From contig CAZDIP010000001.1 in NCBI GenBank assembly GCA_964505635.1, forward strand, positions 222,412 through 286,411: 64,000 nt of DNA, given 5' to 3'. This DNA is from an uncultured Candidatus Saccharibacteria bacterium (GTDB lineage: Bacteria > Patescibacteriota > Doudnabacteria > UBA920). Below the pieces are notes generated by a model. It saw only the letters and a program-made list of their open reading frames with translations. It had not been told where the DNA came from and ran no database searches. Of the stretch, positions 2,711 to 39,815 are shown piece after piece (positions within the stretch are counted from its first letter, which is position 1; the number at the start of each line of letters is the position of its first letter). The translations under genes and the position numbers were made by a program.

Positions 2711-3354
2711 CAGAGCTTTGTAACTTCCCAAACTTCGCATCTTGGTAAAACATCAGCGACAAAATCCCATTCAGCATCTTTATAATTTAATTTTTTCGCA
2801 TTCAGCAAATCAACTCTTTTCATTTCACGTCTTAACAGCCTGACTTTATAACTTTTAGAACTTTTTAAATCATTGAGTAATTTTTTATAAGATTCCAGAC
2901 CATAAACAATTAAGTCGGTATAAATTAACATTCTGCCTCCACTTTTTAAAACCCTTAAAGCTTCTTGCAAATATTTTTTTCGCTCTGTATAAAAAACCAA
3001 TTTCGGATTTCCGCTCAGCAGTTTACGCTTTATAAAACCAGATAAATTCTTGACCAAAAGTTTTTTGCTTTCTCGATCCCATAACCAGTGCAAAGGGGCG
3101 GAAAAAAAATTTCCTACAATTATTTTATCAAATTCTCCTTGACCAAAAGGTAATTTTTTTGCATCGCAAATCTTGAAAGTACAAGAAAAAGTTTTTTTTG
3201 TATTCTTAAAATATTCCGCGATTTTTAGTTTAGCTCTAATAAGTCGCTGGTCGTTAACTTCTGCCAAAAAATATTCGTCCTCAGGTCTGAATTTAATATC
3301 ATATCTTAAAAAATACGGGTTTTCTCCGGCACCTAAGTCTAATATTTTTTCCAT
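2710..3354 (-). CDS. Class I SAM-dependent methyltransferase (substrate unknown)
   Basis: ILDLGAGEN motif I close to the N-terminus. Size fits a Rossmann-type methyltransferase. Confidence 0.5.
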   Translation of the reverse strand: MEKILDLGAGENPYFLRYDIKFRPEDEYFLAEVNDQRLIRAKLKIAEYFKNTKKTFSCTFKICDAKKLPFGQGEFDKIIVGNFFSAPLHWLWDRESKKLLVKNLSGFIKRKLLSGNPKLVFYTERKKYLQEALRVLKSGGRMLIYTDLIVYGLESYKKLLNDLKSSKSYKVRLLRREMKRVDLLNAKKLNYKDAEWDFVADVLPRCEVWEVTKL

Positions 3355-3966
3355 TTAAAATTCCCTTCGGCCTTCCATGGCTCTAGTTAGTGTTATTTCG
3401 TCCGCATATTCCAAATCACCACCCATAGGCAAACCACGGGCAATGCGCGTAATTGTAATGTTAGGGAGGTCGGATTTAATTCTTTTAGCCAAATGCATGG
3501 CCGTAGTTTCTCCTTCTAAAGAAGGGTTAGTAGCTAAAATGATTTCTTTAATTTGACTATTTTTTTCCTTCAATCTTACAATTAAGGACTCTATATTTAA
3601 TTTTTCAGGTCCGATCCCTTCAAGTGGATTTAAAACGCCTCCAAGCACATGGAATAATCCCCTAAAAGTACCCGCTTTGTCTATAGCTAACGCGTCCAAG
3701 GGCTCTTCCACCACGCATAAAATACTCTGTTCCCTGGTTTTATCTGAGCAAATCTCGCACGGGTCAGTTTCCACCATATTGTGGCAAATACCGCAAAACA
3801 CCACTCCGTTTTTTAAATTGCTTACTGCCGACGAAAGTTCTGCTAAATCTATATTGTCCCTTTTCAACAAAAAAAAGCCAAGTCTTTGAGCGGTTTTAGG
3901 GCCTATTCCAGGTAACTTGGAAAGCTCATTTATTAATTTTTGAAGAGAGCTTGGTAGTTTGGTCAT
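3355..3966 (-). CDS. recR: Recombination protein RecR
   Basis: N-terminal HhH (LPGIGPKTAQRL), C4 zinc finger (CGICHN..CEIC), Toprim-like C-terminus. Confidence 0.9.
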   Translation of the reverse strand: MTKLPSSLQKLINELSKLPGIGPKTAQRLGFFLLKRDNIDLAELSSAVSNLKNGVVFCGICHNMVETDPCEICSDKTREQSILCVVEEPLDALAIDKAGTFRGLFHVLGGVLNPLEGIGPEKLNIESLIVRLKEKNSQIKEIILATNPSLEGETTAMHLAKRIKSDLPNITITRIARGLPMGGDLEYADEITLTRAMEGRREF

Positions 3967-26296: not shown

Positions 26297-26412
26297 AAAC
26301 CCGCCAACTTTTGGTGCCGATGTAGCTCAGCTGGTAGAGCATCTCCATGGTAAGGAGAAGGTCTCCGGTTCAATCCCGGACATCGGCTCCAGAAAATTGG
26401 CGGGTTTTTGTT
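26297..26412 (+). terminator. Terminator-like helix whose loop is a whole tRNA gene
   Basis: AAACCCGCCAA (26297-26307) pairs with TTGGCGGGTTT (26397-26407), followed by a T-run. tRNA-Thr(GGT) lies between the two arms. Confidence 0.5.
26316..26391 (+). tRNA. tRNA-Thr (anticodon GGT), CCA encoded
   Basis: Manual cloverleaf: GCCGATG/CATCGGC acceptor, GCTC/GAGC D stem, TCTCC-ATGGTAA-GGAGA anticodon arm, TCCGG-TTCAATC-CCGGA T arm. Confidence 0.9.
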
Positions 26413-27006: not shown

Positions 27007-27039
27007 AAAATACCGCAATGCTTGCGGTATTTTAATTTT
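27007..27039. terminator. Rho-independent terminator (bidirectional)
   Basis: AAAATACCGCAA / TTGCGGTATTTT stem with a 3-nt loop and flanking A/T runs. Confidence 0.7.
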
Positions 27040-27123
27040 GGTGGGCGGTGCAGGACTCGAACCTGCGAAGCCGTAAGGCACCTGATTTACAGTCAGGTGT
27101 AATTGCCGCTATACGAACCGCCC
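27039..27123 (-). tRNA. tRNA-Tyr (anticodon GTA), class II long variable arm, CCA encoded
   Basis: Reverse complement folds as GGGCGGT/ACCGCCC acceptor, CCTGA-CTGTAAA-TCAGG anticodon arm, GCC-TTAC-GGC variable arm, GCAGG-TTCGAGT-CCTGC T arm. Confidence 0.9.
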
Positions 27124-27926
27124 ATACTTGTAAATTTTTTAAGTCTCTCTTCGTGTTTTTTGTTCTTAAAACCTATCTCGGTGATATATTTATTTATGTC
27201 CGATTTTCTGGTTAAGTATACACTATGTACACTAATTTTGGAAGGGCTGAAGTTTAGGTTTAAAAATGCCTGTCTAACATCCGCGAGCAGAAGTTTTGAA
27301 AGGTTGGAAAAAGAAATTTGTACCCCTTTATGCATTTTATAGACCGATCCGTCCGTATCGATTAAACCCCTTAAAACAGATTTTAAATATACTTTCCTCT
27401 TAAAAATCCAGGCAGGTATTTTAACCTGTGATTTGGTTTTATTATGAGCCATCCCTTGCCCTAAAAGCCATTTAACCGCTACTGAAGAGCCAAAATACAC
27501 AACTTGGTCGCCCCTTTTAGTGATAATTGTTTTTGGCTTTGAATTAAATACCTTTTTCATTAATTCTGAAACATGCGGGGCATACTTATCTTTTGTGCCT
27601 AACGTAACCGTGACTTGGGTTTTAGTAATATGACCGTCTCCTAAAATTATGCCTATTAATTCAGCTAAATCGCCGGAATATTTTTTTGGCAAAATAATAT
27701 TTTTATTTATATTATTATATCCGGCTTTTTTATCACGTAAAGTTTTTATATTTAGCCTAACTAATCTGTCATAAACGCTATTCTCTGCTAAGTCTAATAT
27801 TTTTGCAATCTCGTTTATGGCTTTATTTTGTTTGACATATAGAAATACAAGCTGTTGCTTGTTTTTTAAACATTCTTGTCTTGTCCATTTTCTGGCCATA
27901 TTTAGATAATATGTAAAAATTGACAT
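27093..27926 (-). CDS. Free-standing double-motif LAGLIDADG homing endonuclease with N-terminal HTH
   Basis: Two LAGLIDADG motifs (LIGIILGDGH and LRGLIDTDGS). N-terminal HTH-like INEIAKILDLAENSVYDRL. The last 31 nt overlap the 5' part of tRNA-Tyr. Confidence 0.85.
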   Translation of the reverse strand: MSIFTYYLNMARKWTRQECLKNKQQLVFLYVKQNKAINEIAKILDLAENSVYDRLVRLNIKTLRDKKAGYNNINKNIILPKKYSGDLAELIGIILGDGHITKTQVTVTLGTKDKYAPHVSELMKKVFNSKPKTIITKRGDQVVYFGSSVAVKWLLGQGMAHNKTKSQVKIPAWIFKRKVYLKSVLRGLIDTDGSVYKMHKGVQISFSNLSKLLLADVRQAFLNLNFSPSKISVHSVYLTRKSDINKYITEIGFKNKKHEERLKKFTSMGGSYSGNYT

Positions 27927-30440: not shown

Positions 30441-30469
30441 TTGATTTATATTATACTTTATGTTAAAAT
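30441..30469 (+). promoter_or_regulatory. Sigma70-type promoter of the tRNA/rpmG unit
   Basis: TTGATT (30441-30446), 17-nt spacer, TGtTAAAAT (30461-30469). Confidence 0.55.
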
Positions 30470-30566
30470 ATTCAAAGTAAGCTTTCATATTTGCCTGCAT
30501 TAGCTTCCGCCAAAGCGGACAGGCATCCGGTAGGAAAAAGGTTTTGTTCGCCCCGTCACTTTTCTG

Positions 30567-30756
30567 GCCAGCTTAGCTCATCTGGTAGAGCAACGGTTTT
30601 ACCTGCCCGCCAGTCGCCGAGTGCCGATGTAGCTCAGTTGGTAGAGCAACGGTTTTGTAAACCGTAGGTCGTCGGTTCAAACCCGACCATCGGCTCCAGG
30701 CGATCGGCAGGCGGGTAAACCGTAGGTGGCCGGTTCGAGTCCGGCAGCTGGCTCCA
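30567..30756 (+). tRNA. Interrupted Thr-type tRNA (outer gene): halves 30567-30600 and about 30715-30756, separated by an insert of about 114 nt
   Basis: GCCAGCT/AGCTGGC acceptor, GCTC/GAGC D stem, ACGGT/ACCGT anticodon stem, GCCGG-TTCGAGT-CCGGC T arm, discriminator T, CCA. All stems are perfect. The anticodon loop is split after TTT. Confidence 0.6.
30623..30698 (+). tRNA. tRNA-Thr (anticodon TGT), CCA encoded, nested inside the outer Thr-type tRNA
   Basis: GCCGATG/CATCGGC acceptor, ACGGT-TTTGTAA-ACCGT anticodon arm, GTCGG-TTCAAAC-CCGAC T arm. Confidence 0.9.
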
Positions 30757-30889
30757 CTGCTTCGTCCGCCTAAGGCGGACTACGCAGTGCAAGCACATCG
30801 TTTTAAAGGATCAAGCGATGTAAATAAGACTGCCTGACGCCCAGGCAATCTGTACTAATCACTATTCACTAACAACTAATCGCTAGAAT

Positions 30890-31057
30890 ATGTCTCAAGA
30901 TCATTTACTTAACATGGAGTGCTCGGTTTGCCACAATATTAATTACCAAACCAAGCGCAACAAAAAAAGTTTGGGCGCGCAAAACAAAAAGCGCCTTGAA
31001 TTGCAAAAATATTGTAAGCACTGCAAAAAAAAGACTTTACACAAGGAAACGAAATAG
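30890..31057 (+). CDS. rpmG: 50S ribosomal protein L33 (55 aa; below the ORF-track size cutoff)
   Basis: Manual translation gives MSQDHLLNMECSVCHNINYQTKRNKKSLGAQNKKRLELQKYCKHCKKKTLHKETK. CxxC...CxxC and the LHKETK end are typical of L33. Confidence 0.85.
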   Translation: MSQDHLLNMECSVCHNINYQTKRNKKSLGAQNKKRLELQKYCKHCKKKTLHKETK

Positions 31058-31133
31058 TTTAACTAATGACCGATAATTAATAACTTATAACTGGTTGCTT
31101 GTTATAAATTATAAGTTATCGGTTTATTACTTG

Positions 31134-31418
31134 GGGGGCGTCGTATAATGGTAGTATCCGCCGACGCTAAAGCTGTAGCGGACAAGCAGCGGTCTCCGCC
31201 CCGCCTTTACAAACTTAAATATTATCTCCACGGCATCTGGTGGGGGGTTCGTATAACGGTAGTACAATGGTCTCCAAAACCATTTGCGAGGGTTCGACTC
31301 CTTCACCCCCTGCCAAACGCCGCGGAGCTATATTTCGGCCAATAAACCAAAACCGATTGCGTGCTTGCCCGACGAAGTCTTAACGAAGTCGGGGGTTCAA
31401 TTCCTACCGCCCCTGCCA
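31134..31418 (+). other. Split Trp-like tRNA halves (acceptor + D arm 31134-31157; T arm + acceptor + CCA 31391-31418) bracketing tRNA-Trp; possible pseudogene or intron-containing tRNA
   Basis: GGGGGCG pairs with CGCCCCT (G1.U72, discriminator G, as in the inner Trp). D arm is GTAT-AATGGTA-GTAT. T arm GGGGG-TTCAATT-CCTAC has one G/A mismatch. I could not reconstruct an anticodon arm. Confidence 0.45.
31242..31315 (+). tRNA. tRNA-Trp (anticodon CCA), CCA end encoded
   Basis: GGGGGGT/ACCCCCT acceptor (G1.U72), ATGGT-CTCCAAA-ACCAT anticodon arm, GAGGG-TTCGACT-CCTTC T arm, discriminator G. Confidence 0.9.
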
Positions 31419-31421
31419 AAA

Positions 31422-31449
31422 AAGTCCCGCTTAGCTGCGGGTCTTTTTT
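31422..31449 (+). terminator. Rho-independent terminator closing the tRNA/rpmG unit
   Basis: GTCCCGC / GCGGGTC stem (one T/T mismatch) followed by T6. Confidence 0.65.
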
Positions 31450-31512
31450 GTATACCCTTGTGGGTGTTCAAAACTTTTAATGTTATAATTTAATAAAGCA
31501 AATTTAACAAAA

Positions 31513-38384: not shown

Positions 38385-39521
38385 ATGCAGCCGCTTGCCA
38401 ATAAAATCCGTCCCACATCACTGGATACTTACATTGGCCAGGAACATTTAGTGGGGGGAGGGAAACCTTTAAAGCTTGCTATAGAAAACAAGCATCTTTT
38501 TTCATTTATTTTGTGGGGACCTCCGGGGGTAGGTAAGACCACTTTGGCTAGAATATATGCTAAGGCGGTTAATGCGGAGTATCACGAACTTTCTGCGGTT
38601 TCAGCGGGCAAAGATGATATTAGAAAAATTGTGGAAAAACCGCCTATGCTGAGTCAGCCAAAGATTTTGTTTTTAGACGAAATCCACCGCTTCAACAAAG
38701 CCCAGCAGGATTTTTTACTACCCTTTGTGGAAAAAGGGGACTTGTATTTAATTGGCGCGACCACTGAAAACCCAAGCTTCGAAGTTATTCCGGCTCTGCT
38801 TTCCCGTTGCCGTGTGTTTGTGTTAAATGAGCTAAATGATGAAGAAATAAAAAAAGTCATAGAGTCCGCAAATCTAAAGATTAATAAACAATCAAAGGAA
38901 TGGCTTATTGCCATGGCAAATGGCGACGCCCGTCAGGCGCTGACAGTTATTGATAATTGCCAAGAGCTGTACGGCGAAATAAATTTAGACAATTTAAAAA
39001 ATACCCTTCAGTCTAAATTTCTGCGCTACGACAAGGCCGGGGAAGAACACCATAATACCATTAGCGCGTTTATAAAATCTATGCGCGCCAGCCAACCCGA
39101 CGCGGCGCTTTACTATTTGGCTCGTATGGTAGAGGCGGGGGAAGACCCTTTGTTTATAGCCAGGCGTATGGTGGTGTTTGCCTCAGAAGATATAGGCCTT
39201 ATTCAGCCAACGGCTTTGGTAGTGGCTAATGCGGTATTTGAAGCGTGTCAAAAAATTGGCTATCCCGAGTGCGCCATAAATTTAGCTCACGGCGCAGCCT
39301 ACCTGGCAAGCTGTAAAAAAGACCGCTCCAGTTACGAGGCTTATTTAAAAGCCTTAGATGATGTTAAACAATACGGCAACTTACCGGTACCTCTAAACAT
39401 AAGAAACGCGCCCACCAAGCTTATGAAGGAATTAGGTTATGGCAAGGGCTATGAAAAATACCCCGAAAACAATAATTATCTCCCCGAAAAACTTAAAGGG
39501 GAAAAATATTTAAAACCTTAA
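38385..39521 (+). CDS. rarA: Replication-associated recombination protein A (AAA+, MgsA/RarA), short form
   Basis: [19 protein letters not shown] start, Walker [21 protein letters not shown]-terminal MgsA domain ([13 protein letters not shown]). Confidence 0.9.
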
Positions 39522-39527
39522 GCTTAA

Positions 39528-39563
39528 TTCGACTGGACAATTCGCGCGAATTGTCCAGTCGAA
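39528..39563. repeat. Perfect 36-bp palindrome
   Basis: TTCGACTGGACAATTCGC|GCGAATTGTCCAGTCGAA, starting 7 nt after the rarA stop. Confidence 0.9.
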
Positions 39564-39576
39564 AATCCATAAAATT

Positions 39577-39616
39577 AAAACGCCCGATTTATACTCTAGA
39601 CATAACGGGCGTTTTA
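39577..39616. terminator. Terminator-like hairpin (large loop)
   Basis: AAAACGCCCG / CGGGCGTTTT 10-bp stem with a 19-nt loop and A/T runs on both sides. Confidence 0.5.
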
Positions 39617-39636
39617 ATCAGGTTTACTCTGGATTC

Positions 39637-39664
39637 CGGCCTTCCGCCGGTTGGCGGAAGGCCG
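39637..39664. repeat. GC-rich 12-bp hairpin
   Basis: CGGCCTTCCGCC-GGTT-GGCGGAAGGCCG. Confidence 0.8.
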
Positions 39665-39815
39665 CGGGATGACATGTTGGCCTTGAATTACGAAACTCAA
39701 TATTGTTCGACTTTCCGCCAAAGGCGGACAGGTAAGGAGAATGATATCGAGTAATTAAGCCAAAATTTTAGATTCTCCACAAGTTCGAAAACTAAAATTT
39801 TTCTGTTTCGTGTAT

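Follow-up and report, generated by a model that had tools for sequence, protein, structure and literature searches.

A tRNA-Trp gene nested within the separated pieces of a second tRNA-Trp gene next to bacterial rpmG

An intact tRNA-Trp gene lies inside the separated pieces of another tRNA-Trp gene at positions 31134-31418 of the window, by which we mean the whole 64,000-nucleotide (64-kb) stretch of bacterial DNA analysed here. The inner gene (31242..31315, forward strand; GGGGGGT.../...ACCCCCT), which we refer to as type B, was identified as tRNA-Trp(CCA) by ARAGORN, in agreement with the initial annotation of the locus, and scored 59 bits against Rfam family RF00005, for which the gathering score is 29. 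It has a cloverleaf with a 7-nucleotide (nt) anticodon loop containing CCA and an encoded CCA end, and is presumed to be the working gene. Around it are found all 74 of the 74 positions of a type-A tRNA-Trp, in order, in four pieces and with two substitutions. Type A is the intact gene of nine Candidatus Doudnabacteria-like relatives, located at this same site after rpmG, and the 74-nt sequence that served as our probe is 100% identical in L004, L010, L011, L014, L026, L027, L028, L030 and L038 (L-numbers denote loci fetched from related genomes for comparison). The outer pieces were located by BLAST alignment to the intact gene of the relatives, brute-force joining at a relaxed threshold having been uninformative.

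All four pieces are on the forward strand. Piece 1 (31134..31156) supplies gene positions 1-23, namely the 5' strand of the acceptor stem and the D arm as far as GTA (BLAST 23/23, E 2e-7). Piece 2 (31187..31196; CAGCGGTCTC) supplies positions 24-33, comprising the 5' strand of the anticodon stem and the start of the loop, and the region aligned by BLAST, 31187-31197, matches gene positions 24-34 at 100%. Piece 3 (31348..31363; CAAAACCGATTGCGTG) carries positions 34-49, with the anticodon, the 3' strand of its stem, the variable loop and the first 3 nt of the T stem (aligned region 31347-31363, gene positions 33-49, 94%), and piece 4 (31394..31418) completes the gene with positions 50-74, comprising the rest of the T arm, the acceptor 3' strand, G73 and CCA (aligned region 31393-31418, gene positions 49-74, 25/26 or 96%, E 9e-7). 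These alignments bear out the initial annotation in assigning 31134-31156 and 31393-31418 to the two ends of a tRNA-Trp. The anticodon arm of the outer molecule, which had been thought impossible to rebuild, is present in 31187-31197 plus 31347-31363, and the G/A mismatch formerly noted in the T stem is an artefact of an insertion at 31364-31393. When 31134-31156, 31187-31196, 31348-31363 and 31394-31418 are joined, ARAGORN recognizes the resulting 74 nt as tRNA-Trp(CCA) with one mismatch, G27.A43. The outer gene becomes a tRNA only after this in silico removal of three segments: as an uninterrupted cloverleaf in the DNA it was found neither by ARAGORN, including its intron mode, nor by Rfam, and with introns allowed ARAGORN reported the inner genes only.

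Comparison with relatives indicates that the outer gene is the resident, ancestral-type tRNA-Trp of the lineage, in its ancestral place between rpmG and the terminator, since it shares 72 of 74 positions with the gene that remains intact in nine relatives. The proposal that it is a diverged paralog of the inner gene thus gives way to the reverse arrangement, in which the inner gene is the foreign one, and the comparative analysis of the rpmG-tRNA-Trp region suggested at the outset proved informative in that those nine relatives carry the outer gene intact at this site. The inner gene is 93% identical to the genes of L005, L012, L018 and L047 and 85% identical to the type-A gene represented by the outer pieces, from which it differs at 11 of 74 positions. 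As type B is present in more distant genomes (L005, L012, L015, L018 and L047) and type A in the closest relative, L001 (ribosomal protein L33 95% identical), the inner gene appears to be a newcomer.

The surrounding DNA is AT-rich (about 35-44% G+C across the window) and encodes bacterial housekeeping genes. The L33 protein of the window is 95-71% identical to that of metagenome-assembled genomes (MAGs), several of them carrying the label Candidatus Doudnabacteria or Patescibacteria. Its gene, rpmG (30890-31057), lies between a tRNA-Thr locus and the tRNA-Trp locus in an apparent single transcription unit that runs from a promoter-like site at 30441-30469 through the tRNA-Thr locus, rpmG and the tRNA-Trp locus to an intrinsic terminator at 31426..31450 (forward strand; terminator scan; 31426-31441, then a T run), directly 3' of the CCA of the outer gene. 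The gene order tRNA-Thr, rpmG, tRNA-Trp is common to almost all of the fetched relatives, whose intact tRNA-Trp genes have terminators at the same place. In the window this terminator now closes the transcript carrying the inner tRNA-Trp.

Three insertions, rather than the single interruption first described, separate the outer pieces. Insertion 1 (31157..31186, forward strand) is a 30-nt GC-rich palindromic element in forward orientation, TCCGCCGACGCTAAAGCTGTAGCGGACAAG, followed by CA, and aligns with sequences in L047, L021, L012 and L046. Insertion 3 (31364..31393, minus strand) belongs to the same element family in inverted orientation, its reverse complement aligning as CCCGACTTCGTTAAGACTTCGTCGGGCAAG^CA; it splits the T-stem strand into GTG and GG and contains the repeat CGAAGTC-TTAA-CGAAGTC. 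Insertion 1 aligns with the reverse complement of insertion 3 and also with tRNA-Thr and tRNA-Trp insertions of other genomes, the consensus of the alignment being TCCGCC..CGCTAAAGC..CGGCGGRCAGG^CA. The family thus ends in ...GGCGGRCAGG, and the next bases are nearly always CA: across the 352 kb made up of the window and the 73 loci fetched by then, the motif CGG[CT]GGRCARG occurs 13 times, 11 of them in tRNA relics, with CA next in 10 of the 13. Insertions 1 and 3 accordingly look like copies of a palindromic element of about 30 nt that landed beside CA in tRNA genes. The helix 31179-31188/31362-31371, initially listed as a separate feature, brings together the tail of the forward element and the head of its inverted copy, a complementarity that arises automatically. 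In L047, an independent metagenome contig, a near-twin of the locus has homologous insertions at the same two sites (D arm and anticodon loop).

The position of these elements follows the DNA rather than the transcript. In tRNA-Trp the arrangement is CTC^(element or cassette)^CAAAACCG, with the element forward, and in tRNA-Thr(UGU) it is GGTTTTG^CCTGYCCGCC...GGCGGA^TAAACC, which is the reverse complement. The junction GGCGGRCAGG^CAAAACCGT (also written GGCGGGCAGG^CAAAACCGT) is the same in both, as the two genes have the 9-mer CAAAACCGT in common on opposite strands and the element abuts this 9-mer in each. Orientation that is fixed relative to the DNA target, and not relative to transcription, argues for insertion of DNA rather than for an RNA intron, and we regard this as the strongest single argument available. 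In form the elements resemble those of the REP (repetitive extragenic palindrome) or IS200/IS605 type, being short imperfect palindromes with a conserved asymmetric end, a fixed flanking target and no target duplication. They are not dispersed: outside the two tRNA loci the 64-kb window contains one further copy (39714-39732). No Y1/HUH transposase was identified among the window open reading frames (ORFs), which were screened for families within 24-40 kb. The further copy, TCCGCCAAAGGCGGACAGG, abuts an 11-nt match to the anticodon arm of tRNA-Thr(GGU); the intergenic region in which it lies (39522-39815) also has a GC-rich palindrome, CGGCCTTCCGCCGGTTGGCGGAAGGCCG, at 39637-39664, gave no Rfam match and may be a further tRNA relic.

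Insertion 2 is a 151-nt cassette (31197-31347) in the anticodon loop and is homologous to the anticodon-loop insertion of L047. Its 5' flank (31197..31241, forward strand; homologous to the L047 flank) consists of a remnant left arm CCCCGCC (31199-31205), AT-rich filler and the leader strand of a base-paired rod (31226-31236). The inner gene follows, and the 3' flank (31316..31347, forward strand) combines the other strand of the rod, the trailer (31317-31327), with the decayed tail of an element, TTCGGCCAATAAAC, which abuts CAAAACC and may be compared with ...GCTTCGGCGGGCAGG^CAAAACC in L047. There is no plausible ORF in the 151 nt, nor is an integrase encoded; the AT-rich filler occupies the place taken by a nuclease ORF in relatives.

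The nuclease in question was found in L006, where an 82-amino-acid GIY-YIG ORF (Pfam PF01541, E 3e-15) separates the first outer piece from the inner tRNA. Beyond the catalytic GIY-YIG domain (overlapping T5orf172), no Pfam domain was detected in it. Six further homologues, 51-63% identical, come from Doudnabacteria, Collierbacteria and others, and every one of the seven ORFs stops 3-17 nt short of an intact tRNA-Trp(CCA) or 15 nt into it, an arrangement seen in several different gene neighbourhoods. In each of the six modules whose flanks were read, a dead 5' piece of tRNA-Trp lies upstream of the ORF, followed by the hairpin CCCCGCC-NCTCGCGAGN-GGCGGGG and then (T)CCAAAACC; the module of L084 is bracketed by an 11-nt direct repeat, CCAAAACCGCT. 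With these modules the window cassette shares the left arm CCCCGCC at 31199-31205, the sequence TTTACAAAC, which matches TTTAAAAAC just before the start codon in L084, and a leader ending in ...CTGGT just before the inner tRNA (motifs compared by eye with L084, L074, L001 and L006). The cassette therefore appears to be an ORF-less relative of Patescibacteria modules that pair a small GIY-YIG gene with tRNA-Trp, and we read it as a derivative that probably lost its nuclease, as L001 did relative to L006. Weak tblastn matches to GIY-YIG in the window were rejected, the recurrent ones at 39146-39238 being inside a long ATPase ORF and spurious.

What appears to be a second module of the same logic is present in the window itself. 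A 277-amino-acid LAGLIDADG ORF (27093-27926, minus strand) ends 31 nt inside tRNA-Tyr (27039-27123, minus strand), and it belongs to a family of more than 440 homologues in the databases, of which those with a named source belong to Patescibacteria groups. The three homologues that were looked up all end 15-39 nt inside a tRNA-Tyr gene (4/4 counting the window), and in L090-92 the LAGLIDADG/tRNA-Tyr pair is inverted relative to the adjoining Thr genes. No relics of a resident tRNA-Tyr were found around these modules. A family of ORFs of 220-240 amino acids that run into the 5' end of tRNA-Trp (L017 2738-3400, L025 2674-3399 and L040 2747-3421) may be a third nuclease-tRNA module; identity is 34% between L017, a Patescibacteria-group MAG, and L040, a Berkelbacteria genome, and searches of Pfam, NCBIfam and PDB sequences recognized only an N-terminal helix-turn-helix.

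The nested design is real and recurs both at the tRNA-Thr locus of the window and in many relatives. This sister locus of tRNA-Thr(UGU) (30493..30757, forward strand) has three levels, one more than the two originally described, because an outermost 5' relic (30493-30546; GCCTGCATTAGCT[TCCGCCAAAGCGGACAGG]CATCCGGTAGGAAAAAGGTTTTG, with its own palindromic element at 30506-30523) and the 5' flank of a second cassette family (30547-30566; TTCGCCCCGTCAC, as in L031) precede the gene previously called outer. That gene is the middle one, in two pieces (30567-30601 and 30716-30757), and it encloses a cassette (30602-30715) carrying the intact inner gene (30623-30698). Between genomes that share 71-75% identity in rpmG DNA, the flanks of the Thr cassette reach 94-100% identity, and the closest relatives are without the cassette, a pattern that fits horizontal spread. 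Cassettes are likewise sporadic overall, being present in the window, L005, L014, L032 and L047 and absent from the closer relatives L001, L004 and L007.

Among the same 73 loci and the window, every interrupted copy of tRNA-Trp or tRNA-Thr(UGU) has an intact copy inside or beside it. Two candidates for an interrupted gene present as sole copy were discarded: L022 is simply without a tRNA-Trp near rpmG, and the tRNA-Thr(UGU) interruption in L024 is a run of N. The outer copies themselves range widely in condition. They are pristine in the window and in L047, where outer pieces and inner gene are 100% identical, and dead in L002 (acceptor strands that cannot pair), L031 (3 nt of the anticodon stem missing) and L006 (mutated acceptor). 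In L003, L005, L015 and L021 one-sided relics remain, consisting of 5' pieces only, as would be expected from recombination between repeated tRNA segments. Copies of the last 20 nt of tRNA-Trp (positions 55-74) also occur downstream of the intact gene in L013 (3048-3067 and 3174-3193), L030 (2894-2913) and L029 (2914-2934); these look like ordinary attachment-site remnants of integrative elements, the product of a process separate from nesting.

The helices that the initial annotation listed are present in the sequence, and the minimum-energy fold of the whole 285-nt stretch is nested in a similar way, although it is only weakly better than that of shuffled sequences (z = -2.1); the tRNA-Thr locus gives a nearly perfect nested cloverleaf (z = -7.6). 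The rod is not specific to nesting, since leader/trailer stems exceed the 5% control threshold at 23 of 129 tRNA genes, including a stand-alone tRNA-Thr(GGU) and several non-nested genes. In the window, at 26297-26410, this tRNA-Thr(GGU) sits in the leader/trailer stem ACCCGCCAACTTTT / AAAATTGGCGGGT with a T run after it, and the terminator stem thus spans the whole tRNA. Rod sequences vary between loci while their pairing is kept, suggesting that pairing itself matters; it could act as an RNA processing stem or, in single-stranded DNA, join the halves of the element palindrome. A.C and G.U mismatches are about equally frequent, an observation that lends no weight to selection acting only on the sense RNA, and the A/C mismatches that were put forward as possible sites of editing show no sign of it and look like ordinary decay of an inverted repeat.

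Several further features were observed around rpmG. In the window an AT-rich, near-perfect palindrome of ~55 nt (31069-31123) lies between the rpmG stop codon and the outer tRNA-Trp, with a near-identical sequence in L001 and a similar one in L011 at the same place. The spacer between tRNA-Thr and rpmG (30758-30889) has hairpins that are kept in many relatives, notably CCTGACGCCCAGG, and includes the hairpin GCCTGACGCCCAGGC at 30832-30846; these may be a leader structure of rpmG, and Rfam yielded no identification for them. Between rpmG and tRNA-Trp, L018 has two adjacent ORFs of 82 and 135 amino acids that are antitoxin/toxin-like by appearance (2747-3390), and L007 has an ORF for a MazE-like antitoxin (2756-2950; Pfam PF04014), so mobile genes in general seem to land in this spacer. 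In L005, L008, L015 and L016, tRNA-Trp is immediately followed by a conserved element of about 100 nt (AGACATTTTTTATCGAGTTACC...), for which Rfam gave no credible match.

We consider it probable that the locus arose through repeated invasion by endonuclease-type tRNA replacement cassettes, a reading in which we infer both the mobility and the RNA processing. The outer gene is best read as one that was inactivated by insertions at the DNA level and is now a young pseudogene. The nuclease-bearing form of the cassette would spread in the manner of a free-standing homing endonuclease, cutting a tRNA-Trp gene that is without the cassette, and repair of the break would copy nuclease and tRNA into the cut gene. 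The cell would survive the loss of a single essential gene thanks to the working copy brought by the invader. The inner tRNA would then be transcribed from the promoter and terminator of the old gene and be excised by the usual tRNA end-processing enzymes, while the outer pieces, as a young pseudogene, would gather more palindromic insertions. Recombination between repeated tRNA segments might later erase these pieces, and repeated cycles would generate Russian-doll loci. Of the two mechanisms raised at the outset, replacement of tRNA genes by hairpin-flanked tRNA cassettes is thus favoured, and nothing supports a structured precursor under selection. We place the locus among known selfish-DNA strategies, as a variant of them, and do not regard it as a new RNA processing pathway; full-text searches of the literature found no account of a bacterial tRNA gene nested in a tRNA gene.

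Several observations weigh against this interpretation. The outer pieces are near pristine, with changes at 2 of 74 positions in the window and 0 of 76 in L047, and the homologous cassette flanks are 52-62% identical. Pristine pieces beside diverged flanks are compatible with a pseudogene only if the insertions are recent, independent and recurrent, and such pieces are also what selection on a spliced, functional outer tRNA would be expected to produce. The target poses a further difficulty: the 7-mer CAAAACC has 48 copies in the window, and the only ones occupied by insertions are those in tRNA genes, so sequence alone does not explain the choice of target. A possible answer is that the element recognizes a folded single strand, as the same anticodon hairpin stem with the loop YTN^CAAA would form in both tRNAs. 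Finally, no nuclease ORF is present in or near the Trp locus of the window, where a tblastn search for remnants was negative, and none was seen with any Thr cassette.

The pristine state of the outer pieces matters most for the proposal that the outer gene is a working tRNA from which a bacterial cut-and-join activity removes three intervening sequences, both tRNAs being derived from one precursor. No exon position is missing, the boundaries are exact and there are only two substitutions, the outer pieces of L047 match a functional gene at 100% identity, and the insertion sites are in the D arm, anticodon loop and T arm, as in archaeal multi-intron tRNAs; Patescibacteria, moreover, tolerate tRNA introns near 35/36 (PMC13011429). 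Against this stand the occurrence of the element in both orientations relative to transcription, with its orientation relative to the DNA target fixed, and the intact copy that always accompanies an interrupted one, along with the broken state of the outer copies in other genomes. Nor was a known splicing signal found. Group I introns have a conserved catalytic core and usually exceed 200 nt, whereas Rfam gave no group I match here at the gathering threshold or at E<=10 and the non-tRNA part of the insert amounts to 77 nt. A bulge-helix-bulge places a 4-bp helix between two 3-nt bulges where exon and intron meet; at the Thr locus, the cleanest case, the predicted junction is instead a continuous helix with a single bulged U, and inspection of the Trp junctions by eye revealed no such motif. 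We consider splicing of the outer gene very unlikely in view of the orientation rule, the absence of a known splicing signal and the constant presence of an intact copy. We give marginally less credence still to the related idea that elements and cassette are true intervening sequences removed by protein-based cutting and joining, a bacterial counterpart of archaeal multi-intron splicing that would give two tRNA-Trp per precursor.

Other explanations dispense with splicing. The outer halves and rods might be kept to help the inner tRNA, as a structured leader and trailer for RNase III or RNase P or as insulation, and the frequency of leader/trailer stems, including those of non-nested genes, and rods that differ between loci yet pair (with one compensatory pair between L001 and L006, by reading of the sequences) are in keeping with such a role. 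Yet it would explain the rods and not the outer tRNA pieces, which are absent from many relatives, one-sided in some and decayed in others, and the rods have A.C mismatches as often as G.U; we think it unlikely, if less so than the remaining alternatives. A nest built in place by local duplication or by template switching at palindromes, followed by gene conversion and without any mobile element, would fit L047, L074, L075 and L084, in which the inner and outer copies are the same, but in the window the inner gene departs from type A at 11/74 positions and the two sequence types have different distributions among relatives. The same cassette flanks, furthermore, are shared by distantly related genomes and missing from the closest relatives, and the nuclease-tRNA module recurs in unrelated genomic contexts, so that we hold formation in place to be quite unlikely. 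Least probable of all, to the point of being remote, are classical integrase-mediated integration into the tRNA gene and an assembly artefact. The 3'-end fragments of tRNA-Trp (55-74) in L013, L029 and L030 do resemble attachment-site remnants, but integration leaves an intact gene and a displaced 3' fragment, whereas here both halves flank a third, complete gene and the 151-nt insert encodes no integrase; as for an artefact, the same architecture occurs in independent assemblies from different studies. A phage origin of the cassettes was also considered and set aside, as two exact-pattern scans of viral contigs gave no match.

If repeated invasion by replacement cassettes is the correct explanation, selfish DNA could occupy a single-copy essential gene without splicing by bringing a working spare, a third route beside self-splicing introns and inteins. 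Nuclease-tRNA modules were present in every context checked (GIY-YIG with tRNA-Trp in 7/7, LAGLIDADG with tRNA-Tyr in 4/4 counting the window), and tRNA fragments, odd spacers and 'missing' or duplicated tRNA calls in Patescibacteria, which feed estimates of genome completeness, may arise in this way. Horizontal replacement of tRNA genes seems to happen repeatedly in these reduced genomes, which bears on the evolution of tRNA identity and on the use of tRNA loci as stable markers. A tRNA-specific element with a strand-independent target would also be a tractable candidate for studies of structure-dependent DNA targeting.

In their logic the closest analogues are free-standing homing endonucleases, with which the modules share a GIY-YIG gene beside tRNA genes and for which ORF-less derivatives are expected. 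The GIY-YIG endonuclease SegB of phage T4, encoded in a tRNA gene cluster, cuts the nuclease-less allele, and the repair co-converts adjacent tRNA genes and drives their inheritance (PMC2330249). Unlike SegB, the unit described here lies inside its target tRNA gene, leaves halves on both sides and carries as cargo a full copy of the same tRNA species, and it resides in a cellular genome in which the gene is single-copy; the nuclease of 82 amino acids is putative and its cleavage activity is predicted from sequence.

The palindromic elements have their own counterparts. REP/RAYT and IS200/IS605-type elements are short GC-rich imperfect palindromes with an asymmetric conserved end and a fixed target, insert without duplication and occur in either orientation. 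The elements in our loci share this form; unlike those families, they are found almost only in tRNA genes or relics instead of being dispersed through the 64-kb window, and in some copies the apical loop holds an entire tRNA gene. Among the mobile GC-rich palindromes of AT-rich genomes are the GC clusters of yeast mitochondria and the palindromic elements of Rickettsia, some of which are located within RNA or protein genes. The likeness lies in small GC-rich hairpins in an AT-rich, reduced genome, but these clusters and elements carry no genes and are not specific to tRNA.

Comparison with interrupted tRNA genes yields a similar mixture. Archaeal multi-intron and split tRNA genes have bulge-helix-bulge introns, and mobile elements are suspected in their origin (PMC4090602, PMC3293823). 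Several interruptions at the D arm, anticodon loop and T arm with intact exons are common to those genes and the outer tRNA-Trp; here, however, the setting is bacterial, there is no bulge-helix-bulge, orientation follows the DNA target and an intact copy is always present. Group I introns occur at 35/36 of Patescibacteria tRNA genes in a recent survey, the text of which has no occurrence of 'nested', 'Trp' or 'pseudogene' (PMC13011429). Our locus agrees with them in phylum and in an insertion in the anticodon at or next to 35/36, and differs in having no detectable ribozyme core and an insert of 151 nt, 74 of which are tRNA. Integrative elements, lastly, prefer tRNA genes, leave partial copies and restore function, with the integrase replacing the 3' segment only (PMC9897764), whereas in the locus described here a whole gene has been delivered into the anticodon loop.

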